A stretch of DNA of 64,000 bases from a virus. The notes beneath the pieces were generated by a model. The model was given only the letters and a program-made list of their open reading frames with translations. It was not told where the DNA came from and ran no database searches. The position numbers and the translations under genes are program-made. Shown here in pieces: positions 41,958 to 55,976 of the stretch. Where the stretch lies: positions 1 through 64,000 of the IMG/VR virus record IMGVR_UViG_3300028584_000094; one strand, given 5' to 3'. Position 1 is the first letter of the stretch. The number at the start of each line of letters is the position of its first letter.

Positions 41958-42508
41958 TATTCAGTCCCGTTTCGTTTCTTCATTTGGATAATCTCGAGTG
42001 GCTTCATTGTCTCGCGTTGTTTTCTACCGGCTTCACGACCACGAGCATACGCCGCTTTTGCGAGCTTCGCTGGGTCTGTTCCTGTGTCGACTTTCTTGAT
42101 GTCGTCGAACATACCGAGAACTTTTGCCATAGAATCATTTATTGCCTTGGCTGTCTTTAAATCGGTTTCGTCACCTTGGGTTGTCATCTCGTATAGTTGC
42201 TTGTAGTTTTTCAGAACATCCAATCGGTCGAACACAAATGCACCATCTCGATCTTTCACGATTTGGTCGATTCGTTTTTTGACATGTTTATTCGAGAATA
42301 CCTCATTCACGACTTTCGCCATCTCAGCATCCGGTGTTGCTCCCGACAACATTGCTGAGTAATTTGCGCGAAGAAGCGTTTTTACCTTATCACCTTTACA
42401 CCATTCATCAGTGGTGTACAGAAAACATATCATCTCTTCCTTCGAGGTGAGATGTGTTTCCGGGTCTTTTGACAGTTTACTGTTCAGCGAGTGGTGCGAT
42501 ATGTTCAT
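41957..42508 (-). CDS. terS: terminase small subunit
   Basis: Start chosen at ATG 42508 (AGGA 9 nt upstream). LTSKEEMICFLYT...ANYSAMLSGATPDAEMAKVVNEVFSNKHVKKRIDQI fits the small-terminase HTH pattern. TAATG coupling to terL. Confidence 0.6.
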   Translation of the reverse strand: MNISHHSLNSKLSKDPETHLTSKEEMICFLYTTDEWCKGDKVKTLLRANYSAMLSGATPDAEMAKVVNEVFSNKHVKKRIDQIVKDRDGAFVFDRLDVLKNYKQLYEMTTQGDETDLKTAKAINDSMAKVLGMFDDIKKVDTGTDPAKLAKAAYARGREAGRKQRETMKPLEIIQMKKRNGTE

Positions 42509-42656
42509 TTGGTTTTTCCTTTTTTCCGAAAATTTTATCCCAATGGTTTTGATCAACTGCGAACGGTCTTGAATGAACATCACCAAGTCCTCTCATGGAA
42601 CTCGCGAGACCTCTACCATATCTGACACCTTTTTCTTTTCTTATCTCAACGCTCAT
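42477..42656 (-). CDS. hypothetical protein (59 aa)
   Basis: ATG 42656 with strong SD GGAGA 6 nt upstream. The 3' end overlaps the terS start in another frame. The track lists a longer 42692 start. Confidence 0.45.
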   Translation of the reverse strand: MSVEIRKEKGVRYGRGLASSMRGLGDVHSRPFAVDQNHWDKIFGKKEKPNEHIAPLAEQ

Positions 42657-42912
42657 CAGTTTTCTCCTTTGGGAAACCATTTGTGATAACATACTTGATT
42701 ACTTGATTAAACAGTACATCATGCACTGCACCCAAAATACGTTGTTCGTCTTCTGGTTCGAAGTTTGGAATCACTTGTTTTTTTCTCATACCGCGTATGA
42801 ACTCTTTTTTCTGTTCTTCTGTTTTGAACACTTCCAAAAGAAGAGACACTTGTGTTTCTACCGACACGCTAAACAGCTTTGACTTAATTTTTTTAAACAG
42901 TGATGTCATCAT
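42646..42912 (-). CDS. hypothetical protein, first gene of the virion operon
   Basis: 88-aa ORF directly downstream of the 42913-43041 regulatory spacer. Confidence 0.55.
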   Translation of the reverse strand: MMTSLFKKIKSKLFSVSVETQVSLLLEVFKTEEQKKEFIRGMRKKQVIPNFEPEDEQRILGAVHDVLFNQVIKYVITNGFPKEKTDER

Positions 42913-42993
42913 GTCCTCAAAACTTTTCTTTTAATATTTTCTTTTAACTCTAATAAGTCTTAATGTAATAAGTATTACTTAGGGTCGGATTAG

Positions 42994-43038
42994 CCATATA
43001 TGGATAACCCATATATGGAAAACCCGTATGTGGTGGAC
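42994..43038. repeat. three tandem 15-bp repeats CC(A/G)TAT(A/G)TGG + 5 bp
   Basis: CCATATATGGATAAC / CCATATATGGAAAAC / CCGTATGTGGTGGAC at 42994, 43009 and 43024. The first two cores are 10-bp palindromes. They lie upstream of the virion operon. Confidence 0.7.
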
Positions 43039-43041
43039 CAC

Positions 43042-43311
43042 TTAACACACTTCAAACACATCACTTGATAATTCAATTTTACCATTATGTCTAAAAATGA
43101 CACCACCAGAAATCAGTGACTTAACACCATTGAACCAATTGGTTCTACACACGCTTATTTCGTGTGCTTCGCTCCAAGCAGAATCAATAAAAAGACTGTT
43201 GTTTCTACTCGCCTCGTCCATCATAATGAAGAGAACATGTGTCACTATTCTCTTCCGTCGAACGGTCGAAATAACAAGAGGTAAGTTTTTAATCTTTATC
43301 ATAGAACCCAC
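43042..43311 (-). CDS. small putative DNA-binding protein (hypothetical)
   Basis: 89 aa (GTG 43311, or ATG 43302). NWFNGVKSLISGGVIFRHNGKIEL resembles a wHTH wing. It sits between two regulatory spacers. Confidence 0.45.
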   Translation of the reverse strand: MGSMIKIKNLPLVISTVRRKRIVTHVLFIMMDEASRNNSLFIDSAWSEAHEISVCRTNWFNGVKSLISGGVIFRHNGKIELSSDVFEVC

Positions 43312-43498
43312 TATTCACGAGCGATCGGTGAATTGATGGAGCAACAAATTGAGGGGTAATGGTAATTGGTATTCTAGTTATTTTTTCCAATAACTGACCA
43401 TTGTGTGGATTTATCATGTTCGTTTGTTCGCGAAATGGAACAAAAGTAAACATTGTTTGAACGGCGGTTGCCGCATACGAAAAGATTTTGTTGGACAT
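43289..43498 (-). CDS. hypothetical protein (69 aa)
   Basis: ATG 43498 preceded by AAGGAGA at 6-nt spacing. The track's 43552 start lacks an SD. Confidence 0.5.
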   Translation of the reverse strand: MSNKIFSYAATAVQTMFTFVPFREQTNMINPHNGQLLEKITRIPITITPQFVAPSIHRSLVNSGFYDKD

Positions 43499-43581
43499 AC
43501 ACGGTCTCCTTGATGTTATATTTACCGTGTCTGCTTGGCATCCTGTAGGCAATTAAGTCGGTGTTACTCCCGCCGCACAAA

Positions 43582-43618
43582 CCTCGAACGCCTAATTCGT
43601 TCGGGGTTTTTTCGTTTT
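43582..43618 (+). terminator. strong intrinsic terminator on the + strand, with no + strand gene upstream
   Basis: CCTCGAACG - CCTAATT - CGTTCGGGG (9 bp including one G.U) followed by TTTTTTCGTTTT. Confidence 0.6.
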
Positions 43619-43634
43619 AAAAATTCTATGATAA

Positions 43635-43659
43635 TATATATTAGTTCACAGTGGTGAAC
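43635..43659. promoter_or_regulatory. divergent promoter region with perfect operator-like palindrome GTTCAC-AGTG-GTGAAC
   Basis: TATATATTA (43635-43643) abuts GTTCAC (43644-43649) AGTG GTGAAC (43654-43659). An extra half-site GTTCAC lies at 43704-43709. Confidence 0.5.
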
Positions 43660-43741
43660 TGGTGTCCTCCAAAAGACGGTTAATTCTGATTAAAACCAAA
43701 TCGGTTCACCACCATTTTTAAAACAATTAACGGGAGTTTCT

Positions 43742-44026
43742 ATGAAAATCGACACCGACAAAGAACTTGAATGGGACGGCGAGCAGTTTATTTTATTCAT
43801 CATTACTGAGACAAAAGATCAGAACGGAAATCCATCTGGAAAATTTTCACGAAAAAAATCATATCACTCAACACTTGATCAAGTTGCTCGAAAAATTTCC
43901 GATCTGGCGGTTGGTAAATTTATTCAATCTCAGTGCAGAGACGAGATCAAACCGTTCACACACGCTGTGCAGGAAGCATTGATGCCTGTGTGCATGCGTC
44001 TGAAAATGGCTAGGATGGTAAAATGA
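43742..44026 (+). CDS. hypothetical protein
   Basis: 94-aa ORF with SD GGGAG upstream. Confidence 0.6.
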   Translation: MKIDTDKELEWDGEQFILFIITETKDQNGNPSGKFSRKKSYHSTLDQVARKISDLAVGKFIQSQCRDEIKPFTHAVQEALMPVCMRLKMARMVK

Positions 44027-44211
44027 ATGCACGATCGAATTTCCTATGGTTATTATTCTTAATATCCGGCGACATTCGTTCGTTTTTAACCGAACTTTTC
44101 TGTGGGTTTCGCGGTCACTGTTGGGTAAAAGACGAAGTGTTTATTTCATCAATGGATGATTATTCACTCGTAAAAAAATGTAGAAATTGTGGTAAGGAGA
44201 CATTGATATGA
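44023..44211 (+). CDS. hypothetical small membrane/Cys protein
   Basis: 62 aa, ATGA coupling, hydrophobic FLWLLFLISG, and CRNCG near the C-terminus. Confidence 0.5.
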   Translation: MNARSNFLWLLFLISGDIRSFLTELFCGFRGHCWVKDEVFISSMDDYSLVKKCRNCGKETLI

Positions 44212-44456
44212 AAGTTGTTAGCGAGATAACAAATCTTGAATACAACGGGTTCCATGTTAATCATTGCGACCGAGAATCAGATATGATAATTCTCGATAAT
44301 GGCGAAGCAGTTCCTGTGTCAACCGCTTCGATGATTTTTAATCACGTGATAACGCCGGGAGATATTTATCTTAGAAGCGTTGCCACGCCGACGATAAATC
44401 TTCTCGTTGCTCGTGATGACATGGATAAATACAAATTCAAACAGGTAGGTGTATGA
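44208..44456 (+). CDS. hypothetical protein
   Basis: 82 aa, ATGA coupling. Confidence 0.55.
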   Translation: MKVVSEITNLEYNGFHVNHCDRESDMIILDNGEAVPVSTASMIFNHVITPGDIYLRSVATPTINLLVARDDMDKYKFKQVGV

Positions 44457-44720
44457 ATGGCAAAAACAAAAGTTGCCGAAGCTCCAGTTGTAGAAGAACT
44501 CGAACCGGTTGTTGAAGAAATTCCTGCGGGGTTCCCAGTTGTAACCAATGGTGACACGTATGTCAAATTGGTGGAAGTTCTCAATGAAGTTGTTGAGTTT
44601 AAAACTCGCAACCCGGAAGTTCAAGGTGTTGATAGCGTGATCACTCGTTTGACAGACGCAGTCCGCATGACAGAAACAATTAACGGTCGTAATGAACACG
44701 ATGAAAAGGATGTTATCTAA
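44457..44720 (+). CDS. hypothetical acidic protein
   Basis: 87 aa. The start abuts the upstream stop. Confidence 0.55.
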   Translation: MAKTKVAEAPVVEELEPVVEEIPAGFPVVTNGDTYVKLVEVLNEVVEFKTRNPEVQGVDSVITRLTDAVRMTETINGRNEHDEKDVI

Positions 44721-44848
44721 TGGCTAAAGGTAAAATGCCCGAAGAAATGATGGCGAAATTCGCTAAAAAAGGTGCCAAAGTTGGCGCAAAAGCAGGTGCG
44801 AAAATGGCGGCTAAAAAAGGCGCAAAAGCATCTGGAAAAAAATGCTGA
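44720..44848 (+). CDS. 42-aa Lys/Ala-rich basic micro-protein (below the track cutoff)
   Basis: TAATG coupling to the upstream gene. Reads MAKGKMPEEMMAKFAKKGAKVGAKAGAKMAAKKGAKASGKKC (13 Lys). It ends just before the terminator. Confidence 0.5.
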   Translation: MAKGKMPEEMMAKFAKKGAKVGAKAGAKMAAKKGAKASGKKC

Positions 44849-44877
44849 GTTCATAATCGTGAACTGTTGTATATTAA
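44849..44877 (+). promoter_or_regulatory. operator/promoter-like motif GTTCAT-AATC-GTGAAC + TGTTG + TATATTAA
   Basis: Same architecture as the sites at 2061, 43635 and 55977. Confidence 0.4.
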
Positions 44878-44908
44878 GCATCAAGGAAACTTGGTGCTTT
44901 TTTTATTT
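44877..44908 (+). terminator. intrinsic terminator
   Basis: AGCAUCAAG-GAAA-CUUGGUGCU (9 bp, one G.U) followed by UUUUUUUAUUU. Confidence 0.65.
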
Positions 44909-44917
44909 GGAGAACCG

Positions 44918-45226
44918 ATGGTTGTTTACAAAGAAGATTTTATAGTTGTCACCGCGTTACTAGTGGAACACAATAAAGAAATGTTAGATCATTCAACTCT
45001 GATGGATCCAGTGCCGGAAGGACTAAATGAATACGCGAAAGAGTGGAATAGATTGGGTGATGGGATGGTTCACGATCACGTGTATGGGACAGTTGCGCTT
45101 CGTAAAGATGACATTTTGGATATTTGTGATTACTATCCCGGACACTGCACAATAAAAACAAGTCGCAGTACATTCACGGTCAAGGGAACGACCATTGATA
45201 TTCTTGAACAGATGTGTGAAAAATGA
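44918..45226 (+). CDS. hypothetical protein
   Basis: ATG 44918 with SD GGAGA. The track's TTG 44867 start would lie inside the terminator and promoter. Confidence 0.55.
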   Translation: MVVYKEDFIVVTALLVEHNKEMLDHSTLMDPVPEGLNEYAKEWNRLGDGMVHDHVYGTVALRKDDILDICDYYPGHCTIKTSRSTFTVKGTTIDILEQMCEK

Positions 45227-45423
45227 ATTTCGATAACCTGCGTAAATATGTGAATACGCCACGGCCACATGATGGTCCGTTTCGAATGATGTCACAGGTC
45301 GCGTGGGATCTTGTGAAAGAGGAGTATGAGGGGCACGCATGGTTTGAACCTGCGTCTCCAGAGTTATTTCCTCTTGTTGGGAAAATGAAAGGTATCAGAA
45401 TTTTTATAGATCAAAAGATGTAG
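45223..45423 (+). CDS. hypothetical protein
   Basis: 66 aa, ATGA coupling. Confidence 0.5.
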   Translation: MNFDNLRKYVNTPRPHDGPFRMMSQVAWDLVKEEYEGHAWFEPASPELFPLVGKMKGIRIFIDQKM

Positions 45424-45432
45424 GAGTACACC

Positions 45433-45999
45433 ATGGTGCAAAGATTAAGACACGACCCACTTCGGGAAAAAATAAAACAGATCGAACACGAGAGAGACAT
45501 TGCCAATGGGCGTATTTCCACATTGGACGAACTCATCAAAAAAAGTAACGATGAACTTAATACAATGTGTGATGAATTATTCGAAGTCACAAAAAACACC
45601 GCAGAGCTGAAAATTAAAATGTCGAACACTAACCATGAGCATTCGACATCCTATCTATCACGTAGAGTTTCAGAACTTGGGACAGAATTAGATCTATCAA
45701 AAGAGAGACGCAGAAAACTCTCTGAAAAGATCGAAAAAGACAAAACGGTTTTCGAAGAACGTGAATCAGAATTGATATGTAAAATCCTCGGTCTTGAGGA
45801 ACAGCTTAGTGAAGCGAGCACAGTGTCAAACCGCCCAACTGGATGCTTCAACTGTGAATACAAAGATGCGGCGGCTGAATTGATTAACGTGAAACACGAC
45901 AACCACATGTTGAAATCAAGATATGCTGAAGTGTTAAAAGAAGTTGTCAAATTCAACGACTCACCGTGGTGGTCTAAACTGCGTGGAATTATATTGTGA
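45433..45999 (+). CDS. hypothetical coiled-coil protein
   Basis: 188 aa with long heptad-like K/E/L-rich helices. SD TAGGAG upstream. Confidence 0.6.
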   Translation: MVQRLRHDPLREKIKQIEHERDIANGRISTLDELIKKSNDELNTMCDELFEVTKNTAELKIKMSNTNHEHSTSYLSRRVSELGTELDLSKERRRKLSEKIEKDKTVFEERESELICKILGLEEQLSEASTVSNRPTGCFNCEYKDAAAELINVKHDNHMLKSRYAEVLKEVVKFNDSPWWSKLRGIIL

Positions 46000-46041
46000 A
46001 TAACTGACATTAGTTGGTTACACGGAGAACCCGACGGACAT

Positions 46042-46070
46042 AACCCAAGTTCGTTGGGTTTTTTATTTTT
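46042..46070 (+). terminator. intrinsic terminator
   Basis: AACCCAA-GUUCG-UUGGGUU followed by UUUUAUUUUU. Confidence 0.7.
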
Positions 46071-46419
46071 ATCGACACGTGAAAGATTCTCGATTATATT
46101 ACAGGTGTTCCCGCAACGGGGACCAATCAACACAGGTGTGAAAAGCCCTTGGCTCGCAAGAGACCTAAAACGAAGAGGTGGTGGTGTGATGATCACAATA
46201 ACTCTACAGTTCGAGCGTCCGTGTTCGATCGGTTGTTGATAAACCGAACGGTGGTATAAAACGGGGTATACGGCGAACTGGCAGAATGAAAACGATACAC
46301 GTGGATCTCCCGAATAGTCGAAAGACAGGGATTAGGAAAACCGGTTGTTCGTTCTGTTAAAAATCAACAGTCTCCACAGGGGAAAAAGCAACTCGCTATC
46401 CCCGTGATCCGTCCAAAAC

Positions 46420-46840
46420 GTAAACACGGTCGATACACATATACCCACACCATGACACGCTAAACACGTGAAACCATTTAACGCTTTAACGCGACACACG
46501 CATTACACGAAATCACCATTTAAAACATGTTCACGCAATAATCCATTTTATGTCCGACACATTAACAAGACGACCCAATTATCAAAACCGGTACGCGACT
46601 TTCGTGGAGGTTACCCCACCGCCAAACCGTTACACGCGCACACCCCCCTAGGGGAAAACCCCCCACCCCACACGTAAGTGCGCGGGTGATATACACATAC
46701 GCACGCGTTACGACGCGCAGTTGGGCGCATAATGCCTAGCGCACATCATATCCTAGCGCGCACACAACTCAACGTATATCTATGATTATCAACGACTTAC
46801 CACTCAAATTCCCTTTACATGTACGCACGCACGTACAATA
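46420..46840. other. strand-asymmetric C/A-rich non-coding tract (candidate genome terminus/terminal-repeat region)
   Basis: The top strand is rich in CAC/ACG words and poor in G. Holds palindrome CCCCTAGGGG (46645-46654) followed by AAAACCCCCCACCCCACACG. There is no credible ORF. Confidence 0.35.
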
Positions 46841-46962
46841 TAGCGACAAACGCTATTCCGTTTCCCGTCTTGTATAGTTGTCGGAACGGTAACGCTTCGA
46901 CAGTGATCATTGATACTTTTAGCGTTTACATTATTGCCCGTGGTTTTGCCATGCGTATTTTG

Positions 46963-46992
46963 TTGACAGTCTTATTACCTGTGTCGTTTAAT
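46963..46992 (+). promoter_or_regulatory. sigma70-like promoter candidate
   Basis: TTGACA (46963-46968), 18-nt spacer, TTTAAT (46987-46992). It points towards the early operon. Confidence 0.3.
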
Positions 46993-47317
46993 CGCCATAC
47001 GTAATTTGACGCGCCATGACAGGAACTTCCGTGGGTGATACCATAGGAACTGCAAAACATGAGTATTCGTGATTTTGATCTTTGACATTTCGAGTGAGTT
47101 AATCGGTTTATGTTTGCGACAAAAGCAAGTTGCATATCCGATACTACACAATGAAATATGCCGTTCCTTTATGCCTACACAATGGGCTTATTGGTGATCA
47201 TGATAGCAAATGATAGGCGTTTGTGTGATTTACATAATCACAGGTTTTAGCCGTTTCGAAAGAGGTAAACGGCGACCATTATTTGTTTTGGTCGGAATAA
47301 ACAAAGCTCTATTTTGT

Positions 47318-47439
47318 GGAGTGAGTAACAAAAAATCTATCTGTTGGATTGAGTAAACAGAAAGCTAATTACGGCTTGAATTGTAAAGGTTTTAACTGAT
47401 TGAACCGTTCTAATCAGTAATCTAATTGGGGATTGAGTA
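47318..47439 (+). repeat. three copies of GGA(G/T)TGAGTA with 28-bp register
   Basis: GGAGTGAGTA at 47318, GGATTGAGTA at 47346 (+28) and GGATTGAGTA at 47430 (+84). A degenerate GAGTGAGTTA lies at 47092. Confidence 0.55.
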
Positions 47440-47475
47440 CCAATACCGTGAATTGTCGGTGAATAACATGGTAAA

Positions 47476-47499
47476 GTATTGGCACAATTGTGCCAATAC
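47476..47499. promoter_or_regulatory. 24-bp perfect palindrome (operator candidate) about 110 nt upstream of the first early gene
   Basis: GTATTGGCACAA|TTGTGCCAATAC. The flanking decamer CCAATACCGT is repeated at 47441 and 47492. Confidence 0.5.
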
Positions 47500-47607
47500 C
47501 GTTGAAACACGGCGGATAATTTGTTTCATATTAGCTGATTCTTTTGAGTCAGCAATATACGGCACAAATAGTGACCGATTTAAAAACAATACCAAAAGGG
47601 GTATATT

Positions 47608-48099
47608 ATGACTAAACCAAAGGCAACTGCCACCACTAAAACTGCTACCAAAAAAATCCGCATCGTTAGGGCGGATAAACTGACTATGAAAAACATCAAT
47701 GATAATTTGCAGGACGTAAAGATCAGCACAAAATCCGGCTTCCGTGATAAGGACAATGACGTCACTATGACGGTCACTTCATCTGACGAAACGCAAGCTC
47801 TACGTGAAAAGAAAGCCGAAACCGATGCCGTTATTAAATCGGTAAAAATTCTCACTGATTACAAAACAACCGTTGATCATATCAAACGGTCTGTTCTCAT
47901 TGATCTCGTGAATGAATCACCGATGAGTGACGACGGTAAGAAAAAGTGGGTTGATGTTGTCAATGGGGCGTTCACTACAACAGGCAAAAAACGGTCGGAG
48001 TTCCTTGCTCAAGTGAACCGATGCCTATGTTCAGCATATAAAGTTGCCATTGAAGACGTGGTAGCAAAACGTGTCAAAGATGCGAAAAAGGCGGCGTAA
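47608..48099 (+). CDS. hypothetical protein, first early gene
   Basis: 163 aa, SD AAAAGGGG, basic T/K-rich N-terminus. Confidence 0.6.
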   Translation: MTKPKATATTKTATKKIRIVRADKLTMKNINDNLQDVKISTKSGFRDKDNDVTMTVTSSDETQALREKKAETDAVIKSVKILTDYKTTVDHIKRSVLIDLVNESPMSDDGKKKWVDVVNGAFTTTGKKRSEFLAQVNRCLCSAYKVAIEDVVAKRVKDAKKAA

Positions 48100-48100
48100 C

Positions 48101-48262
48101 ATGACATCGTTAAGAAAAGCGTGGTCGGGCTTCGGCGTGGTGGAGTATATGAATTGTTCGTGTCGCACCGTTGTTACCGATGACAACGGCGACGGGGTGC
48201 AATTGAATGGAGAAAACGATTGGGTATTCTTACTCAATCAATCACTCAGATACGGCGAATAA
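48101..48262 (+). CDS. hypothetical protein (53 aa)
   Basis: ATG 48101 lies 1 nt after the upstream stop. The track's GTG 48071 start overlaps the upstream gene. Confidence 0.4.
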   Translation: MTSLRKAWSGFGVVEYMNCSCRTVVTDDNGDGVQLNGENDWVFLLNQSLRYGE

Positions 48263-48328
48263 CTATCTATTCAGCCCGTCATTGTGGCGGGCGACTATAA
48301 ATAGTTACAATTTTTAAGCGAGGTTATT

Positions 48329-48550
48329 ATGATCAGAGAGTATAGCGTTGACGTTGACACGTTCGAAAATGTTTTGATAAACGATGTTCAAATCAATCTC
48401 GCATCGACACGGTGGATTTTTGGGGATGGTGATATAGCCATCTACACAAACGATGAAAACGTGGCTAATAAGGTACGTAATATGTTGATTGGTCGTCATT
48501 ATGACGCTTATGTCTACAATGTTTGCGGTTCGTTCCGAATCAGTAACTAA
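48329..48550 (+). CDS. hypothetical protein
   Basis: 73 aa, SD GAGG upstream. Confidence 0.55.
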   Translation: MIREYSVDVDTFENVLINDVQINLASTRWIFGDGDIAIYTNDENVANKVRNMLIGRHYDAYVYNVCGSFRISN

Positions 48551-48664
48551 ACCATTTTCCCAAAAGGGGGATAGTATGCTAATGATTAGCGCACCCGAGT
48601 AAGTGCCTAAACTGCTCAACAAGAAACTCCGAAGGAAAAGCGCAAGACGGAATTGCGCTATATC

Positions 48665-48746
48665 TAAATTATCCGTGAGCCGAAACGACCCTCGGGTCGT
48701 ATACGTGGTGGTGATTCCACACGTACTGATGAGGCAAATCAATTTA
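48665..48746 (+). ncRNA. type II hammerhead ribozyme candidate
   Basis: CUGAUGA 48726-48732; GAA 48682-48684; stem III ACGACC/GGUCGU closed by CUCG; GUA cleavage triplet ending at A48701; stem I UACGUG(G)UGG/CCACACGUA closed by UGAUU; open stem II GCC/GGC plus UAAAUU/AAUUUA. Loop I UGAUU is complementary to AAUCA at 48737-48741. Confidence 0.7.
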
Positions 48747-48773
48747 AAGCCCGTAATGGGCAAGGGGTTTATT

Positions 48774-49082
48774 ATGAAAACTACAGCAGAACTCCCAGCA
48801 ATTATTACCATCGATCTCATCAATGAGATCAAGGCGAGCGGGCAAATAACGCTTGCTATGACAGCGAACACCCGTTATGTCAGACAGCTCAACAGGGCTA
48901 AACAGGAAAGAGCGGGTAGATTCTCAGATCTTGAAAAAGCAATGTTTATAAACACCCGTGATTGGGTGTTTCGTGGGGATGAAATGGTAGACCGCTCTTG
49001 CACGGTATACCCGTGTATCGAGGACAAAATATCCATTGTATTCGAAGGAGTCACTTTTGTGACAATGGTTGATGCCATCTAA
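48774..49082 (+). CDS. hypothetical protein flanked by the hammerhead and hammerhead-like elements
   Basis: ATG 48774 with SD AAGGGG (102 aa). The track's 48603 start would translate through the structured RNA. Confidence 0.55.
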   Translation: MKTTAELPAIITIDLINEIKASGQITLAMTANTRYVRQLNRAKQERAGRFSDLEKAMFINTRDWVFRGDEMVDRSCTVYPCIEDKISIVFEGVTFVTMVDAI

Positions 49083-49206
49083 GTGTGTGATCGATTAACC
49101 GCCGTAAGCGGTATACACTACGCCATGACAATGCCGTCACGGTGATACGATAGCGGGATAGTGTACTGATGAGTACCCGCGTAACTTTATAGACTAGGAG
49201 TCTATT

Positions 49207-49341
49207 ATGATCAAACGTATTATCGCAGGTATCCTTATTTCAGCGGGATTGGTTTCAGCTACAACTCTCACACCGATTCACCGCTCAACGATAGTTGTTG
49301 ACGGTGCTGTTTTTAATGGTCAGATATGGGTGCAACAATGA
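49207..49341 (+). CDS. 44-aa protein with signal-peptide/TM-like N-terminus (below the track cutoff)
   Basis: SD AGGAG; reads MIKRIIAGILISAGLVSATTLTP... Confidence 0.45.
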   Translation: MIKRIIAGILISAGLVSATTLTPIHRSTIVVDGAVFNGQIWVQQ

Positions 49342-49415
49342 TTACGAAGGCGATACTTTATGTATCGCTTTTCATCGTAGTATCAGAAGTTTTTTACAAA
49401 TGTTTAGGGGTATAA
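49338..49415 (+). CDS. 25-aa hydrophobic peptide (below the track cutoff)
   Basis: ATGA coupling; reads MITKAILYVSLFIVVSEVFYKCLGV. Confidence 0.35.
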   Translation: MITKAILYVSLFIVVSEVFYKCLGV

Positions 49416-49416
49416 A

Positions 49417-49740
49417 ATGAAAATTGCAAAAGAACTAAACGGGTATTCACCTGTCAAAATCTCAACAGGTGAAGAGTCTATGAACACCACTGATGGTGCC
49501 TCAACCGATCAGTCGATCATTGCCATGTTAATTCTCGCATATAATGCGGGAAAAAATAAAGAACAACTGATCGTGGATGTAACACCACATGAGAAACCAA
49601 CTCACGAAGGTGAGTGTTCATGTGGAAACCACATGACATTGGACGACAAGTGGACTCCACGTGACGTTCGTGTGCAGTGTTATATATGCTTCAAACAGGT
49701 AAATATGAAATACCTGTTGGACGGTCAATCAGAGGAGTAA
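49417..49740 (+). CDS. hypothetical protein
   Basis: 107 aa with a C-terminal Cys pairs CSCGNH...CYIC. Confidence 0.55.
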   Translation: MKIAKELNGYSPVKISTGEESMNTTDGASTDQSIIAMLILAYNAGKNKEQLIVDVTPHEKPTHEGECSCGNHMTLDDKWTPRDVRVQCYICFKQVNMKYLLDGQSEE

Positions 49741-49742
49741 CA

Positions 49743-49916
49743 ATGGCTACCATAATAAACTTTCCAGAAAGAAAATTCCCACCACCACCAAAAGTGGGTA
49801 AGTTTGGCGTGGCGTATTGTGACGATTATCCGTCACCTGCACCACATTGTATGAACAATAAGTTGCAGAGATGCCCAATGGCACTCGCGTGTCCTGTTGT
49901 TCGAGATAGTCAGTAG
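49743..49916 (+). CDS. hypothetical Cys/Pro-rich protein (57 aa)
   Basis: ATG 49743 with SD GGAG. The track's 49677 start overlaps the upstream gene. Confidence 0.45.
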   Translation: MATIINFPERKFPPPPKVGKFGVAYCDDYPSPAPHCMNNKLQRCPMALACPVVRDSQ

Positions 49917-49919
49917 ATC

Positions 49920-49951
49920 AGCGCGGTACAATGAGACCGCGCTTTACTTTT
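49920..49951 (+). terminator. intrinsic terminator
   Basis: AGCGCGGU - 8-nt loop - ACCGCGCU followed by UUACUUUU. Confidence 0.55.
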
Positions 49952-49967
49952 CCCAAAAGGGGGATAA

Positions 49968-50069
49968 ATGGAAACGATAATCCAACTGTCATCATCGATA
50001 CCTTACATCATGATAATAGGCGGGATACTCGGTCTCGCTTCCTCATTCATTCAGCACATGTCAAAATAA
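49968..50069 (+). CDS. 33-aa single-TM peptide (below the track cutoff)
   Basis: Preceded by the conserved box CCCAAAAGGGGGATA; reads METIIQLSSSIPYIMIIGGILGLASSFIQHMSK. Confidence 0.45.
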   Translation: METIIQLSSSIPYIMIIGGILGLASSFIQHMSK

Positions 50070-50089
50070 CAACTCAAAAGGGAGTAAAA

Positions 50090-50257
50090 ATGAGAGCAAT
50101 TACTGTTATCGCAGGGAAAGAATTTACCTGTGAGGTAATCAGAGTAGAATGTGGAGTAGCTACGTTGAGCGTGGCAGGTCGCAAAGTTAACGTGCCGAGC
50201 GAAAAGTGTTCATTCATTCAGTCACGTGAAAACGCGTGGCTTTCGATGGGAGTGTGA
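50090..50257 (+). CDS. hypothetical protein (55 aa)
   Basis: ATG 50090 with SD AAAGGGAG. The track's 49931 start spans the terminator and the small TM ORF. Confidence 0.5.
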   Translation: MRAITVIAGKEFTCEVIRVECGVATLSVAGRKVNVPSEKCSFIQSRENAWLSMGV

Positions 50258-50258
50258 G

Positions 50259-50753
50259 ATGAAGAATCCTAACTACTCAGCCTCGGTTAAAAAAGTTCCA
50301 TTCGGTAGTAGAAAATCCGATGGCGTCATGATCTATTTGACGATGCCGAAATGGGATTGCGACTGGTATTGGTCGTTCGGTTATCTCGGAAACAAAGATG
50401 AACACTACCATCTCGACAATTATCAAGATAAGCAAATTGTCTTCACCGACGAAAACGATAAATTCAGCGTCGTAACCCAGCGGAGAAACAATAACATGCA
50501 CGATCTTCTTCTCGAAGATTATGATCTAGCCGATAATATCAAATCTACCCTGTGGGTATTCTGTGAGATGGTGTTAACAGTCTACGCTCTAAAAGAGACA
50601 GCAGAAGTTCTTGGTCGTGGTGGTTCACACATGACGACAAATCCATGTAAAAACATAATCATCAACACCGATGAAGTGACTCGAATCAACAATGTGGTTT
50701 TGCCATCACTGTTTGAAGCACTCGAAAATCTGCTCGGTGTCAAAGGAGGATAG
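50259..50753 (+). CDS. hypothetical protein
   Basis: ATG 50259 lies 1 nt after the upstream stop; 164 aa; Trp-rich motif WDCDWYWSFGY. Confidence 0.55.
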   Translation: MKNPNYSASVKKVPFGSRKSDGVMIYLTMPKWDCDWYWSFGYLGNKDEHYHLDNYQDKQIVFTDENDKFSVVTQRRNNNMHDLLLEDYDLADNIKSTLWVFCEMVLTVYALKETAEVLGRGGSHMTTNPCKNIIINTDEVTRINNVVLPSLFEALENLLGVKGG

Positions 50754-50754
50754 T

Positions 50755-51249
50755 ATGACTGACATAACGCGTAAGATCAAAACAATTGCGTTGAATGTAA
50801 CTGATGGCGAAACTGTGGAACATGAATTGTTCCGTGGAGATTCTCAGTTCCACGAATCTATCGACGAGGACAGACTGATTCAGTTGATCGACCATGCAGT
50901 TGATAACAAATACTATATCACGATCCACCCGACCCCATTGGGAGAAATGATACGTGACGAAGGAAGCATCGACACCATCGACGCACCATACGATCACTAT
51001 GCTTGCACGTCGAAAGTGATTGAAAGCGTGGCTGATGATCTGAGAACAGGCATTGAGAAAGCAACCAAGTTGAGTAAACAGGACGACAAACTGTATGACC
51101 TAAACTCAGTATCGTTACCGATCATCAAGTCGCAGATGCACGCACTACTGTTTTCAGAGTTGGTCAATAACTTCTGTGTTGAACACGGTCTTCAGTGTGA
51201 AAACGGATATTATGAAACAGATATTAACACTGTCATAGGAGATCAATGA
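50755..51249 (+). CDS. hypothetical acidic protein
   Basis: ATG 50755 with SD AAAGGAGGA; 164 aa, D/E-rich. Confidence 0.6.
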   Translation: MTDITRKIKTIALNVTDGETVEHELFRGDSQFHESIDEDRLIQLIDHAVDNKYYITIHPTPLGEMIRDEGSIDTIDAPYDHYACTSKVIESVADDLRTGIEKATKLSKQDDKLYDLNSVSLPIIKSQMHALLFSELVNNFCVEHGLQCENGYYETDINTVIGDQ

Positions 51250-51500
51250 TGACACCAAAACAAAAAGCTACACTCGTTGGTCTCAGAGCATTCTTCTGTG
51301 ACATTGACGAGGATCAAGACATTGTAGAATCGTTCGATGTAAACCCGATGAAGTACACACAGGAAATGATAAACGCAGGTCTCGTGTGGGAAACATTGGA
51401 AGACACTGACCCAGATATTATCGTTGAATGTGTTAGAGCAATCGAGTACGACATCATGACGTTTGTATTGGGATTTGAACCCGAAGAATTTGAGGAGTAA
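51246..51500 (+). CDS. hypothetical highly acidic protein
   Basis: 84 aa. By hand count, 21 D/E versus 5 K/R. Confidence 0.55.
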   Translation: MMTPKQKATLVGLRAFFCDIDEDQDIVESFDVNPMKYTQEMINAGLVWETLEDTDPDIIVECVRAIEYDIMTFVLGFEPEEFEE

Positions 51501-51502
51501 TC

Positions 51503-51679
51503 ATGGTTATCAGAGTAAAAGCCACTCGTCAGATTATGACAGTGGCTCCAATCAGATGCACTACGCAGTGTCAAATGAGAAACTCTGCTATTCAACCGCC
51601 GACGGTGTGGGAATATCGTGACCTTGACACTGGTCGAGTCGTTGTGTATAGTGACCGTGAAATTGAAATAGTAAATTAA
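51503..51679 (+). CDS. hypothetical protein (58 aa, below the track cutoff)
   Basis: SD GAGGAG 5 nt upstream; reads MVIRVKATRQIMTVAPIRCTTQC... Confidence 0.5.
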   Translation: MVIRVKATRQIMTVAPIRCTTQCQMRNSAIQPPTVWEYRDLDTGRVVVYSDREIEIVN

Positions 51680-51694
51680 CAAAGGCAAATAACA

Positions 51695-52207
51695 ATGTCA
51701 AAACTCAAAGACTTAATCACCAAGACGAACATGAAACGTGACGGTCTTGGTCGATGGATAACATCTTCGGACACGAGGGATATTTTCTATACTGATGGGT
51801 TTCATCTTATCCGTGTCGATTGTGTTCCAACTGATGATCCGATGTATCACCCCGTGAAATCCATGACTCGTGAGTGGGCATATTATTTCGGGGAAGTGCA
51901 TGGATATGTTCGGTTCACAGGTGTAACAGTAAAAGGATTCCACGTGGTAGCATTCATGAACCCAGACGGTTCCGTGTCAAAGGCACTCGTCGAAGTCAAA
52001 GAACTAGAAGCGGTGTTAGGCAAGAAGTTCGAACATAACACAAAAATAACCGTGTGGAGAAAAGGAACAGAAAAAACATTCGCATTGTTTGATATGTCGC
52101 AGGGCGTTGGGTTGTTCGTATCCGAACTAACCATTTATAAAAAGGCAAATGATATGATACACGCGGTGACAATGGTTGCGAATTTAGATACGTGGCTGAA
52201 TCAATAA
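51695..52207 (+). CDS. hypothetical protein
   Basis: 170-aa ORF. Confidence 0.6.
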   Translation: MSKLKDLITKTNMKRDGLGRWITSSDTRDIFYTDGFHLIRVDCVPTDDPMYHPVKSMTREWAYYFGEVHGYVRFTGVTVKGFHVVAFMNPDGSVSKALVEVKELEAVLGKKFEHNTKITVWRKGTEKTFALFDMSQGVGLFVSELTIYKKANDMIHAVTMVANLDTWLNQ

Positions 52208-52225
52208 TCCCAAAAGGGGGATAGT

Positions 52226-52363
52226 ATGAAACAGGTCAGAATGATGATGATGCACAGAAAGCATCTCGAAAATCTTTACGGTAGACCAGTGACCGAGCTT
52301 GAAGCGGCTGAACATTGGTGTCGATTCTGCGCGGTTGTTTACCGCGCTTACTACCACAACTAA
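52226..52363 (+). CDS. hypothetical protein (45 aa, below the track cutoff)
   Basis: Preceded by the exact box CCCAAAAGGGGGATAGTATG; reads MKQVRMMMMHRKHLENLYGRPVTELEAAEHWCRFCAVVYRAYYHN. Confidence 0.45.
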   Translation: MKQVRMMMMHRKHLENLYGRPVTELEAAEHWCRFCAVVYRAYYHN

Positions 52364-52376
52364 AAGGAGTTGTAAC

Positions 52377-52589
52377 ATGAATATTCAAATCCCGAAATCA
52401 ATCAAAAAGATCTCGTCAACAGTTGCGGCACATGTACGTGCTCACTACCCAAACATCGTTTGTGTTGAAGATTTCCCCGTGAATATGCAGTTGGCTATGG
52501 AAGATACTTGCAAACACGAAATGTGGTATCAAGACTGCAATCGGTTCATAGGTGACGTGTATCAACAACGATCAATGGAAAGTCGGTAA
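52377..52589 (+). CDS. hypothetical protein (70 aa)
   Basis: ATG 52377 with SD AAAAGGAG. The track's 52299 start overlaps the 45-aa ORF. Confidence 0.5.
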   Translation: MNIQIPKSIKKISSTVAAHVRAHYPNIVCVEDFPVNMQLAMEDTCKHEMWYQDCNRFIGDVYQQRSMESR

Positions 52590-52593
52590 TATC

Positions 52594-52794
52594 ATGAAAA
52601 TCGTAATCGATATTCAAACAGGTGGCGATGCGTTCGTCGATGACCGATCAGTAGAACTCGAACGACTGATTCGGAAAACGATTGACACAGCTTCCAATTC
52701 CCTTGACGCATTGACATCATCGGGTGTTATTCGTGATTACAATGGGAACCGATGTGGAACGTGGATATTGAACAATTCCCCGGAGGAGATATGA
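52594..52794 (+). CDS. hypothetical protein (66 aa)
   Basis: ATG 52594 follows the upstream stop. Confidence 0.45.
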   Translation: MKIVIDIQTGGDAFVDDRSVELERLIRKTIDTASNSLDALTSSGVIRDYNGNRCGTWILNNSPEEI

Positions 52795-53147
52795 AATATC
52801 TAGTAAAACAGTGGAATTTTAGTTCAATTCGGTTGGATGATGGGAGCCACACGATCAACCCCGTTAGAAACTTTGAACGGGAACTCGTCAATAACATTGC
52901 GAGACTTTCTAAAACATTGTATCCGAAATGGACACATGACTCTGCGATAGAGATCAATGGGCTACCAATGCTCGTGTGTCATCGCCAGTATAAAGTTGTT
53001 GTCGTGTTTGGTTTTGACGCTGATAATCAAATGACGATCGCATTGTATCGAAGTGAAGAAGTGGTGAATCTGCTCTTGAGTAAGGTCAAGGAAGCAATCG
53101 ATAAAACAGTAAGAAACTATAAGTTATTGGAGGATCAAAATGATTAA
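52791..53147 (+). CDS. hypothetical protein (118 aa)
   Basis: ATG 52791 with SD GGAGGAG; ATGA coupling. Confidence 0.55.
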   Translation: MKYLVKQWNFSSIRLDDGSHTINPVRNFERELVNNIARLSKTLYPKWTHDSAIEINGLPMLVCHRQYKVVVVFGFDADNQMTIALYRSEEVVNLLLSKVKEAIDKTVRNYKLLEDQND

Positions 53148-53856
53148 AAAATATTCAAACTCTGACATATTCGATGTGATTCAGAATCAAAACGACCCTC
53201 AAGAGGCGTGGGTTCTTGAGCGAGTAGAGAGCACGAACAACTTTTTCAATGTTAGTTCTCGAAAGATAAAAATGAACGAAATAAATATCGACGGGTGTGA
53301 CGTGTCGGTTGTGTATAAGGACGGTCATGGAACACGTCGATTCGCAGGGTTAAAATCTGTTCACAAAACAAAGGAATCACTCATTGAGGAAATTGTAGGT
53401 GAACGTCTTGAAGAGGACGCGATCCAATTGGACGACTGTTGGCAGTGTATGTTGTGGGATCTGGTCACTCTCGTGACAGGTGACGAACCTTCAAACCTGG
53501 GTGATTGGCAGAACGCTATTGAGTGTGCTGTCCGTGTCGCCAAGGAAAAGGCTATCGAAGATGATCGATCACACGAGATTGCGAATGTGTTGTATGATAA
53601 CTTCATCAACGGCGACACATCTGGACTGTCTCTCTGTCATAAACTAGAACGGGTCAACGATTATCTCCGAGACAATAACGAGGAACAAGTAACACGCGTC
53701 CCGAAAAAGGGGGAACAATGGGACATCCTCGGTGAGCCATGTGTCATCGCTGACATCGGCGGATTGAAAGCAGTGTGTCGCAACACGGGTGAGTTCTGGG
53801 ATTGCGATGACGAGATGTTCATGGAGCATGGGATATTCATTGCAGGTGATGAATAA
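53140..53856 (+). CDS. hypothetical protein
   Basis: 238-aa ORF. Confidence 0.6.
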   Translation: MIKKYSNSDIFDVIQNQNDPQEAWVLERVESTNNFFNVSSRKIKMNEINIDGCDVSVVYKDGHGTRRFAGLKSVHKTKESLIEEIVGERLEEDAIQLDDCWQCMLWDLVTLVTGDEPSNLGDWQNAIECAVRVAKEKAIEDDRSHEIANVLYDNFINGDTSGLSLCHKLERVNDYLRDNNEEQVTRVPKKGEQWDILGEPCVIADIGGLKAVCRNTGEFWDCDDEMFMEHGIFIAGDE

Positions 53857-53869
53857 CAATGGGGGGCGT

Positions 53870-54049
53870 ATGAATATCATAAATTCAAAATGCCCCAACT
53901 GTAATTACAATCATGAACTTGACGACAAAGAAGAGTTCATAGAATGCGAGCAGTGTGGGTTCACGTTTATCATCTGTCAGAACTGCGATCAGTTGAGATG
54001 CGATGATTGTGATTGTGGGAATCGGTTTAGATACCCAAGAGACGAATAA
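53870..54049 (+). CDS. small zinc-ribbon protein (59 aa)
   Basis: ATG 53870 after a GGGGGG SD. Has CPNC...CEQCG...CQNC...CDDCDC Cys pairs. Confidence 0.5.
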   Translation: MNIINSKCPNCNYNHELDDKEEFIECEQCGFTFIICQNCDQLRCDDCDCGNRFRYPRDE

Positions 54050-54246
54050 CTTGACCGTTGTGTGCTGACGAGGCACGAGGCGGTCATCACAAACGGAGAT
54101 GGTTATGGCATTCCGCATCATAACAACGGACGGTTACAATATCGTGACCGATCCGTCAAAAGCGAGAGAGTTGATCAGTGTGTTTCGCGACTGTGGTATC
54201 TATCGCGGAATGCAGTTTCTTCCGTACTATCGAGGAGGTGATTGTC

Positions 54247-54402
54247 ATGGATGAGGCGTATGAGATGTCACGTGCTGAGTATGCTGAGTTTATTCTCAGT
54301 CACCCAGATTTCACGATCGAGGAACATCAACCAACATTCACACAAGAATGGTACAACAAACAGTTCAGAGCAATGTTTGAGTTTTTACTTGAGTTGAATT
54401 AG
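54247..54402 (+). CDS. hypothetical protein (51 aa)
   Basis: ATG 54247 with strong SD GAGGAGG. The track's 54178 start lacks an SD. Confidence 0.5.
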   Translation: MDEAYEMSRAEYAEFILSHPDFTIEEHQPTFTQEWYNKQFRAMFEFLLELN

Positions 54403-54421
54403 TAACCAAAAGGGGTTAAAC

Positions 54422-54658
54422 ATGTGGGTGTTGAAATATCCAAAAAAAGTGTCGTATGGTTGGATGCCAAAAACAATTGAAGCACCAGCAGGGACTGAGT
54501 GTGTTCCTGCGTCAAACATTGCCGCCGCCAATATCGTCGGTTTTGGATTTTGGATTGAACCTTTCGAAGGTCTCGAAGACAACCAAGAGGCGATGGCGTG
54601 GTGTGAGGTGTATGGTTTCCACGCTAATGATGATGAAGTGGAGGAGATCAATGAGTAA
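54422..54658 (+). CDS. hypothetical protein
   Basis: 78 aa, SD AAAAGGGG. Confidence 0.55.
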   Translation: MWVLKYPKKVSYGWMPKTIEAPAGTECVPASNIAAANIVGFGFWIEPFEGLEDNQEAMAWCEVYGFHANDDEVEEINE

Positions 54659-54875
54659 GATGACATCACTTGAGACAGCGGTTGAAGTTGTGTCGACAGC
54701 AGATAAATTCATGTCGGATTCACGACCAATGCACAACGCATGGTACGTGTTTTTCGTTGGTAGACACATGCAAGATGTTTCGTTTAAAGAAGTGTCTCTC
54801 GTGTCGAATAAAGAATGGCAGGAAGCAAAGATGATCGTTTACGGTGATCGCTTTGACTTCAGAACAATGTCCTAA
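54651..54875 (+). CDS. hypothetical protein (74 aa)
   Basis: ATG 54651 with SD GGAGGAG. The upstream part of the track's 54456 ORF overlaps the previous gene out of frame. Confidence 0.5.
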   Translation: MSKMTSLETAVEVVSTADKFMSDSRPMHNAWYVFFVGRHMQDVSFKEVSLVSNKEWQEAKMIVYGDRFDFRTMS

Positions 54876-54886
54876 AAGGAGGAACG

Positions 54887-55660
54887 ATGAACAAGGAACA
54901 GTTTGAAACTGTTAAGCGACTATGTGTTGATTACATGTCAACACTCACCGTCGAAATCGTTCGGGAGTATATCTTCCGAAACGGGTTACTAACTACCAAT
55001 GGAAAACTTTCGAAAGGGGACAACAAGAACTTCGGACTTGAGTTGTTACCATCTACCCTCGGAGGTGTGAACGTATGTCCACGTGCAGGTCTATGTAAAC
55101 TGACATGTATCGCGTTTTCTGGTGTTGGAAATATCCTCAAGTCGAAAGTCGTACTCGGAGGAGACGGTCTTTCGAATCCACTGAAAGCAAAAGCAATCAG
55201 AACTTTCGCTTTGATACATGATCGAGAGTTTTTCGATTCCTATCTGATCGAAGAGATCAGACACAAACACAACCTACACACGTCGTATGGGAGAAAAACT
55301 AGATTCCGATTGAACACTACATCCGATGTTGATTGGCGATACGTCACTGATAAATTGTCTCACGTTCAGTTCTACGACTATACGAAAGTGTGGGAACGGG
55401 AGTCAACGCCCAATTATCTTCTGACGTTCTCGGCTAGTGAGTCCACGACAGTTCCGATGATCAGAGACAAGTTATCCAAACTTGAAAACGTGGCTATCGT
55501 GTTCTACAAGGTGCCGCAACAATTCGAAGGAATGCTCGTTCGAGATGGCGATGAAACGGATGATCGCTATGATGACATTCGCGGGTCTATTATTGGTCTC
55601 AAATACAAAGCCACAATCGGTGGTAAACACGATACTAGCTTCGTGTTTGGGGAACGGTAG
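54887..55660 (+). CDS. hypothetical protein with CPRAGLCKLTC motif (possibly GP88-like family)
   Basis: 257 aa, SD AAAGGAGG. The Cys cluster plus RFRLNTTSDVDW...FYDYTK resembles my recollection of the phage GP88 domain. Not verified. Confidence 0.55.
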   Translation: MNKEQFETVKRLCVDYMSTLTVEIVREYIFRNGLLTTNGKLSKGDNKNFGLELLPSTLGGVNVCPRAGLCKLTCIAFSGVGNILKSKVVLGGDGLSNPLKAKAIRTFALIHDREFFDSYLIEEIRHKHNLHTSYGRKTRFRLNTTSDVDWRYVTDKLSHVQFYDYTKVWERESTPNYLLTFSASESTTVPMIRDKLSKLENVAIVFYKVPQQFEGMLVRDGDETDDRYDDIRGSIIGLKYKATIGGKHDTSFVFGER

Positions 55661-55666
55661 GTAACC

Positions 55667-55971: not shown

Positions 55972-55976
55972 CAATA

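Follow-up and report, generated by a model that had tools for sequence, protein, structure and literature searches.

A probable type II hammerhead ribozyme in an intergenic spacer of an uncultured tailed phage

Could the short spacer between two small phage genes encode an RNA that would cut the very transcript that carries it? The question is raised by positions 48665-48746 of a 64,000-nucleotide stretch of viral DNA (IMG/VR record IMGVR_UViG_3300028584_000094, positions 1 to 64,000; hereafter the window), in which a preliminary description had recognized a complete type II hammerhead ribozyme motif on the + strand. Covariance-model search, a coordinate check, the minimum free energy (MFE) fold, covariation within the family, a coding test and genomic context were all found to agree on that assignment, and the segment 48678-48741 (+) is almost certainly a genuine member of the type II hammerhead family. 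The explanation that best accounts for the locus as a whole, and that is likely to be correct, is a genuine type II hammerhead ribozyme in a 5'-untranslated spacer, where co-transcriptional self-cleavage after A48701 would split a polycistronic mRNA.

Identification and architecture of the element

Scanning of the whole window with cmscan against 4227 Rfam families at gathering thresholds returned a single match, RF02276 (Hammerhead_II), at 48678-48743 on the + strand. The match is full-length (model positions 1-66 of 66) and scores 38.9 bits against a gathering score of 37, with E = 2.2e-4, and is significant for the class that the preliminary description had proposed. A permissive Rfam scan of 42500-56000 (13.5 kb) gave the same Hammerhead_II match with E = 4.7e-5, and clan competition within Rfam kept the type II model as the best one. 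No other ribozyme family, hammerhead types I and III, HH9 and HH10 included, reached its gathering score in the window or E <= 5 within 42500-56000, and no second hammerhead was found in the window either by the Rfam scans or by a permissive parser of our own. Weak matches to GcvB, RybB, Atu_C9 and Poribacteria-1 in the permissive scan lay far below the gathering score and were taken as chance. The element is bounded at about 48678-48741 (64 nt), and its parts are as follows.

48678-48743 (+): Rfam Hammerhead_II match, by covariance model
48679-48681 (+): stem II, 5' strand GCC (G11.3 C11.2 C11.1), pairing with 48733-48735 as an open helix
48682-48684 (+): core G12 A13 A14 (GAA), invariant in 71/71 aligned hammerheads
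48685-48700 (+): stem III hairpin of 6 bp, ACGACC 48685-90 / loop CUCG / GGUCGU 48695-700, by fold and covariation
48701-48702 (+): predicted cleavage site between A48701 and U48702, with H17 = A48701 (GUA triplet), by core alignment
48702-48725 (+): stem I hairpin, 6 bp of UACGUG 48702-07 with CACGUA 48720-25, bulged G48708, 3 bp of UGG 48709-11 with CCA 48717-19, loop UGAUU
48712-48716 (+): loop I UGAUU, 5' strand of the pseudoknot, complement of 48737-41
48726-48732 (+): core C3-A9, CUGAUGA (C3 U4 G5 A6 U7 G8 A9), invariant in 71/71
48733-48735 (+): stem II, 3' strand GGC (G10.1 G10.2 C10.3), by coordinate check and covariation
48736-48741 (+): linker A48736 and 3' strand of the pseudoknot, AAUCA 48737-41, by complementarity and covariation

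The order of elements is 5'-II-core-III(hairpin)-H17-I(hairpin)-core-II-3', with helices I and III capped and helix II open. Checked by script against the sequence, the coordinates previously given for the core, the three stems and the pseudoknot proved exact in every case, with A15.1-U16.1 at A48685-U48700 and G10.1-C11.1 at G48733-C48681. All invariant core positions are present in the canonical order, and the corresponding columns are invariant in 71/71 relatives; the position of the predicted GUA cleavage triplet follows from this core alignment. The MFE and centroid folds of the 82-nt segment are the same three-helix junction and reproduce the type II topology, and stems III and I retain a pair probability of about 0.9 in every transcript context, from 59 to 501 nt. 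One proposed part fell away. An outer helix of 6 bp made only of A and U (UAAAUU 48665-70 with AAUUUA 48741-46), put forward as a distal extension of stem II, can be drawn in the sequence and was rejected, as it is absent from the MFE fold and helices of at least 6 bp show no excess in the family (4.9% of 161 members versus 3.2% of swapped controls).

Pseudoknot between loop I and the tail

The preliminary description had further claimed a tertiary pairing between loop I and the 3' tail, which was borne out. UGAUU 48712-16 and AAUCA 48737-41 form a perfect 5-bp complement, separated from stem II by a 1-nt linker. When a 5-nt loop and a 12-nt tail are drawn at random from the window, a perfect complement of at least 5 bp is obtained in 1.0-1.5% of cases. 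Because the covariance model does not score pseudoknots, this pairing is evidence independent of the Rfam match.

Relatives were collected by pattern. A first scan of IMG/VR, with the pattern CCGAAAC..GUA..CUGAUGAGGC, gave at least 118 loci against a handful expected by chance. Among the matches listed, pairing begins 1 nt after stem II in 50/50 viral hammerheads with a pseudoknot of at least 4 bp, as it does here, and the pairs themselves differ from one subfamily to another (GGCC/GGCC, UGACC/GGUCA, AGUC/GACU, GGCU/AGCC). A tail-selected scan, in which GGC-AAAUCA was fixed and loop I left free, gave 1 viral locus (IMG/VR) and 24 loci from a metagenome collection that does not contain the window's own source contig. 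The hammerheads so selected have UGAUU, UGAUA or CGAUU as loop I, and four tail-pattern matches without hammerhead stems have none of these loops. In 157 unique hammerheads taken with a general parser, a pseudoknot of at least 4 bp is present in 70%, versus 20% with swapped tails, and one of at least 5 bp in 39%, versus 4.6%; more than 35 different complementary sequence pairs serve as the pseudoknot across this set.

Column-by-column evidence was obtained from a MAFFT alignment (A1) of 71 non-redundant sequences, all type II hammerheads found on viral or metagenomic contigs, for which the pseudoknot was no selection criterion. Its core columns are invariant, and the row of the window element fits without a core gap. 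Over the four helices, pseudoknot included, 92.5% of cells hold standard pairs, as compared with 64% in column shuffles and 35-38% when the strands are slid, and 461 cells show double changes versus 143 in shuffles, with 0/500 shuffles reaching the observed value. The columns of stem II (2-4/68-70) are 98% paired, while those of stem III (8-13/30-35) and stem I (37-45/53-60) covary and are 98% and 94.5% paired, the percentages for stems I and III being inflated since the parser used these two stems to pick the sample. The pseudoknot result alone is unbiased: its columns (72-76 versus 47-51) are paired in 78% of cells, versus 16-47% when slid, with 79 double-change cells versus 27.6 in shuffles, and again 0/500 shuffles reach the observed count.

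Other traits of the window element are likewise at home in the family. GCC/GGC is the commonest stem II (119/161 members), the pair U1.1-A2.1 occurs in 99/161 and the linker A in 115/161, all three as here, and an H17 of A is found in 52/161, a figure that is partly selection-biased. Stem I regions of 24 nt and stem III regions of 16 nt, the lengths seen in the window, are common. The share of the UGAUU/AAUCA type in the family set is inflated by the second search pattern. Sources of the subfamily that combines stem II GGC with the tail AAAUCA include groundwater 'Hain' and several Ga03073xx samples, whereas a scan of 185,579 genomes representing bacterial and archaeal species gave no match to its exact tail-specific pattern. 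The subfamily thus seems to be carried by uncultured phages rather than by prophages of species with sequenced genomes.

As a separate observation, dense arrays of 5-13 type II hammerheads, all on one strand, occur on some contigs of viral or metagenomic origin. The largest, L141 (Ga0307377_10001417), has 13 in about 8 kb, 7 of them at the Rfam gathering score, and nine further contigs (L006, L060, L093, L133, L135, L139, L123, L131 and L142) have 6-9 each. The spacing of about 250-800 nt corresponds to roughly one ribozyme per intergenic gap, in nearly all gaps. Clustered hammerheads flanking single genes have been described, and triple arrangements tested (PMC3088659); arrays as large as that of L141 may be under-described.

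Genomic setting of the ribozyme

The ribozyme lies on the + strand in a 223-nt spacer between a 73-amino-acid (aa) gene and a 102-aa gene, 38 nt upstream of ATG 48774 and in the sense orientation, and all neighbouring genes are also on the + strand. The surrounding features are listed here.

48329-48550 (+): upstream gene, 73-aa ORFan, coding score +0.28 per codon
48551-48677 (+): upstream part of the spacer, with a mini open reading frame (mini-ORF), hairpin GCGCAAgacggaaUUGCGC at 48641-59 and the segments 48604-08 and 48614-18 that compete with stem II in some nearest-neighbour folds
48576-48602 (+): 8-codon mini-ORF MLMISAPE, ATG to TAA, with a strong Shine-Dalgarno (SD)-like AAAGGGGGA 6 nt upstream
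48751-48773 (+): 5'-untranslated region of the downstream gene, with small hairpin GCCCguaaUGGGC at 48751-63, seen in folds, then directly the SD AAGGGG 48764-69
48774-49082 (+): downstream gene, 102-aa ORFan, start ATG 48774, coding score +0.33 per codon

The mini-ORF, which lies 76 nt before the ribozyme, forms the last part of a 37-aa frame that opens with TTG (48489-48602) and runs over the end of the upstream gene. The intergenic position first described, between this mini-ORF and the SD of the gene that starts at ATG 48774, was confirmed. The start of that gene needed attention, however, because both the ORF list and the public protein database (entry P0001) place it at GTG 48603, which yields a product of 159 aa. 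Codon-usage log-likelihood, trained on 18 long genes of the window, is -0.33 per codon for 48603-48773 and +0.33 for 48774-49079, with neighbouring genes at +0.28 to +0.40; GTG 48603 has no SD, and AAGGGG precedes ATG 48774. The first 57 codons of P0001, which cover the ribozyme, are thus most likely spurious, as had been suspected of an N-terminal extension that hid the element, and the real product is most likely one of 102 aa from ATG 48774.

Placement before a small gene is the habit of the family. In 110/122 viral hammerheads a same-strand SD and start codon follow downstream, at a median of 30.5 nt, the proteins encoded there have a median length of 92 aa (102 aa here), and an upstream frame on the same strand usually closes at the ribozyme itself. 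Less typical is the upstream spacer of 129 nt, as against a family median of about 1 nt from the end of the upstream ORF to the ribozyme. The downstream 102-aa gene has no Pfam or PHROG match, and its single-sequence AlphaFold (AF2) model, with a pLDDT of 40, is unusable. Ten downstream genes of other hammerheads disclosed no functional theme, all being unknown save for one weak Gp2.5-like match. The hairpin GCGCAA..UUGCGC at 48639-48659 also scores as terminator-like on the minus strand, where it is followed by TTTCCTT and has no minus-strand gene nearby; it may be a bidirectional or antisense-blocking element, or chance.

The phage and its transcription unit

The window makes up most of a 65.8-kb JGI metagenome contig (65,795 bp) and comes from a novel uncultured tailed phage. 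The minus strand encodes a P22-type portal, large terminase, major head protein and a 2,912-aa protein with an SLT domain. On the + strand, a block of small ORFans (43.7-56 kb) is followed by RecT, an exonuclease and SSB, and then by an O-like initiator, a DnaC-like loader, a primase-helicase and a methyltransferase. The searches detected no phage RNA polymerase in the window, and transcription by the host polymerase is therefore likely. Terminator-like hairpins on the + strand at 46042-60 and 49920-43 suggest a transcription unit that spans about six small genes and has the ribozyme near its centre. Of the earlier designation of this unit as an early operon, the same-strand block of small ORFans ahead of the recombination and replication genes, opposite the structural arm, was confirmed; the word early is plausible.

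No close relative of the phage was found among GenBank phages or in IMG/VR. The best GenBank match of the portal is to the Klebsiella phages LASTA/ZX1, at 22% identity, and the nearest relative of the large terminase in a cellular genome is on L143 (CANRFA010000001.1), a metagenome-assembled genome of an uncultured Oscillospiraceae from rabbit gut, with 35% identity over residues 17-474. Both matches appear too distant to name a host, and L143 may be taken as a weak hint of host or ecosystem.

Two other regions of the genome drew attention in passing. The 2,912-aa ORF (7624-16362, minus strand) has an N-terminal SLT lytic transglycosylase domain and, near residue 2000, a sub-threshold Peptidase_M78/IrrE-like stretch; it is probably an ejected internal virion protein. 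An N4-like phage, which the size of this ORF had brought to mind, was rejected, as the searches showed an SLT lysozyme domain and no RNA polymerase signal. Within the + strand block of small genes, 46100-47600 is 1.5 kb without an ORF of more than 69 aa on either strand. To its left lie the strong terminator-like hairpin at 46042-60 with its T-run and a promoter-like site (10/12) at 46072-46100, and the region itself contains C-rich tracts at about 46640-46675 and a perfect 24-bp palindrome (47476-47499) flanked by 30-nt direct repeats (47437-66 and 47490-519). It had no Rfam match and no similarity to GenBank phages, and 46100-46400 showed no excess folding energy (z = -0.21). The region could be an origin, an operator region or a non-coding RNA locus.

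Weighing of alternative explanations

Several observations weigh against a functional hammerhead. The Rfam score exceeds the gathering score by only 1.9 bits. The isolated fold has a modest z-score of -1.71, with 10/200 shuffles folding as well, and in nearest-neighbour folding some longer contexts swap the 3-bp stem II for upstream pairings, with a free-energy difference (ddG) of 0 to 7.6 kcal/mol and a stem II probability of 0.0-0.6. Pairing of the full 5-nt loop I would probably require that the innermost pair of stem I, G48711-C48717, be opened, a need that is inferred because loops in the family are 7-9 nt; L129, a subfamily relative, has the same 5-nt loop I. All of the covariation is at the level of the family, and the biological purpose of bacterial and phage hammerheads was still undefined in a 2019 review (PMC6765202).

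The last but one of these points reflects a partial outcome. The preliminary description had looked to homologous phage regions for covariation, and all four helices do covary at the family level (71 sequences), while no orthologous phage or locus was found in the collections searched. Megablast of 47000-50500 found no orthologue in GenBank phages. None was reached in IMG/VR with an exact 29-mer of the ribozyme or with two protein anchors, the downstream ORFan and the large terminase (TerL), and looking up contigs by identical protein, with the ORFan, the portal or P0001 as query, yielded none either. A homology search with the downstream ORFan across 5.8 billion proteins returned only itself. 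As to the score, 25 clear relatives, many of them in arrays, range from 37.5 to 54.4 bits, a range that includes the 38.9 bits of the window element; L085, which has the same pseudoknot, scores 38.6 bits and L129 scores 42.0 bits. The low value is ascribed to the element being AU-richer than the Rfam consensus, and 38.9 bits is normal for this AU-richer subfamily.

The instability of stem II in longer transcripts is the starting point of one alternative, in which the hammerhead is real and conditionally active, its weak stem II being gated by sequence 3' of the mini-ORF stop, so that cleavage would depend on whether the mini-ORF is translated or on where the transcript begins. In folds of 48603-48746 and longer, UGCCU 48604-08 with AGGCA 48732-36 and GCUCA 48614-18 with UGAGC 48676-80 replace stem II at a ddG of up to 7.6 kcal/mol, the mini-ORF is furnished with its SD-like AAAGGGGGA, and the upstream spacer is unusually long for the family. 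The effect of the competitor nonetheless varies strongly with the 5' end that is chosen (ddG 0.0 for 48551-48746, 2.0 for 48576-48746), and nearest-neighbour calculations cannot include the 5-bp pseudoknot, a pairing that would tip the balance towards the active fold. During transcription, local hairpins form first. There are no homologues by which to gauge conservation of the segments 48604-08 and 48614-18, and the mini-ORF scores as non-coding, albeit on 7 codons and in a mis-set frame. Conditional activity is on balance improbable, and its most specific form, a translation-sensing switch in which ribosomes terminating on the mini-ORF, or the choice of transcript 5' end, decide whether the mRNA is cut, is more improbable still. 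If true, a phage gene would be under the control of a natural hammerhead that senses translation.

Equally improbable is a chance look-alike or decayed relic, a consensus match without a useful rate of cleavage whose hairpins are ordinary intergenic structure. The score barely above the Rfam gathering threshold, the modest z-score and the want of an orthologue showing purifying selection would all suit such a reading, and some consensus-like candidates were inactive when tested by Perreault et al. (PMC3088659). Those inactive cases, however, mostly had core deviations or atypical contexts (PMC3088659), whereas the window element deviates at no invariant column of the core, and clear family members score equally. 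An E value of 2.2e-4 over 4227 families, multiplied by a chance of about 1% for a pseudoknot in the right register, and again by the correct strand and intergenic position, argues for membership.

A third possibility does away with ribozyme chemistry and regards the tandem hairpins as a protein-dependent element, that is, an RNase III or RNase E site, a 3'-end stabilizer or a weak terminator. Hairpins between early cistrons of phages are classic RNase III sites, as in T7, and further hairpins do lie on both sides here, at 48641-59 and 48751-63. Such a reading leaves the 13 invariant core nucleotides, the loop/tail complement and the covariance-model match unexplained. Stems of 6-9 bp are short for RNase III, neither hammerhead hairpin is followed by a T-run on the + strand, and the terminator scan lists none there, all of which makes this account very unlikely. 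Scarcely credible, finally, is a genuine 159-aa ORF from GTG 48603, which would place the hammerhead-like sequence within a gene. From 48603 onward the frame is open, and P0001 is in the database, but the negative coding score, the GTG without an SD, the overlap of the extension with the covariance-model match and the frequent occurrence of family ribozymes within over-extended open frames all argue otherwise.

Proposed mechanism and role

With the genuine type II hammerhead as the preferred explanation, a course of events can be proposed. Host RNA polymerase would transcribe the operon, stems III and I would fold as local hairpins, and the 3-bp stem II would then close the three-way junction. 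Loop I UGAUU would pair with AAUCA, 1 nt after stem II, and keep stems I and II parallel, an arrangement shared with other type II hammerheads. The 2'-OH of A48701 would attack its 3' phosphate and thereby sever the RNA between A48701 and U48702. Of the two products, the upstream RNA would terminate in the stem III hairpin and bear a 2',3'-cyclic phosphate, and the downstream RNA would carry a 5'-OH on U48702, start at the stem I hairpin and have a 72-nt leader that contains the hairpin 48751-63, the SD AAGGGG and ATG 48774. The two halves of the mRNA would in this way gain separate stability and translation.

In bacterial mRNA decay, RNase E and RNase J gain entry poorly at a 5'-OH end or a 5'-terminal hairpin, and exonucleases are slowed by hairpins at the 3' end. 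Because ends of this kind resist decay enzymes, an uncoupling of stability and translation between the operon halves is suggested. In outcome this would resemble the way in which RNase III processes T7 early mRNA. We infer cleavage, its occurrence in vivo and its effect on expression from motif, structure and context. The RNA would very likely cleave itself in vitro; that its main role is mRNA processing, setting differential stability or translation, is a proposition for which the chances appear evenly balanced. Type II and clustered hammerheads cleave in vitro and in E. coli (PMC3088659), long phage transcripts have been proposed by Perreault et al. to be cut into mRNAs of single-gene or operon length (PMC3088659), and in Desulfovibrio vulgaris in vivo cleavage has been shown for three type II hammerheads that neighbour phage-like genes (PMC8782182).

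Comparison with known systems

As compared with RF02276 as described by Perreault et al. in 2011 (PMC3088659), the window element has the same invariant core, the same capped helices I and III and open 3-bp stem II, a pseudoknot of at least 4 bp between loop I and the nucleotides directly 3' of stem II, and the same kind of phage or prophage intergenic site, on the sense strand shortly before a gene. There is no categorical difference, the window element being AU-richer than the consensus. It has H17 = A where C is commoner, a bulged G in stem I, a 5-nt loop and a longer upstream spacer, and its pseudoknot UGAUU/AAUCA stands to the consensus UGG(u)/(G)CCA as a set of compensatory changes. Closest in kind is the UGAUU/AAUCA subfamily (L129, L085, L123, L133, L141), which shares stem II GCC/GGC, the A linker and the pseudoknot pair, and has an SD and ATG 15-40 nt downstream, as the window element does; L129 also has the same GG-UGAUU-CC architecture. 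The stem I and III sequences of these relatives are unrelated to those in the window, which speaks for family resemblance and not orthology. Most of them use GUC, and many occur in arrays of 5-13, whereas the window element uses GUA and is present in single copy.

Two natural systems offer a comparison in setting. HHphage of the haloviruses HF1/HF2 (Perreault et al. 2011, PMC3088659) resembles the window element in setting, being placed among the early genes of a lytic tailed virus and only nucleotides ahead of a start codon in a polycistronic transcript, and a mapped 5' end suggests that it cleaves in vivo (PMC3088659). HHphage differs in that it is salt-adapted, has an atypical core insertion and precedes a helicase gene, while the window element has a canonical core and precedes an ORFan. 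The Desulfovibrio vulgaris type II hammerheads seen by cyPhyRNA-seq (PMC8782182) have the same topology and lie near hypothetical or phage-like genes; these copies are chromosomal or prophage-borne in a cultured bacterium, with cleavage detected in vivo, whereas the window element is known from sequence alone.

Resemblance of a looser kind may also be considered. At the RNase III sites of T7 early mRNA, and with RiboJ insulators, a transcript is cut between cistrons and hairpin-capped ends uncouple stability and translation. T7 uses a host protein enzyme and RiboJ is engineered, whereas the RNA described here would cut itself, and the likeness is one of functional analogy only.

Significance

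In summary, the locus holds a typical member of a class known since 2011, whose pseudoknot, topology and phage-intergenic, polycistronic setting have already been published (PMC3088659). One well-formed type II hammerhead is added to a class that is abundant in phage and prophage intergenic regions, a public gene call is corrected from 159 aa to 102 aa with the start at ATG 48774, and a probable mRNA processing site is marked in an otherwise unannotatable operon of ORFans. The comparative set further shows that covariation of the pseudoknot extends over more than 35 sequence pairs, and that the ribozymes lie a median of about 30 nt before the start codons of small phage genes. This covariation, together with the position before start codons, fits the idea that phages may use such ribozymes to cut polycistronic mRNAs into single-gene units.

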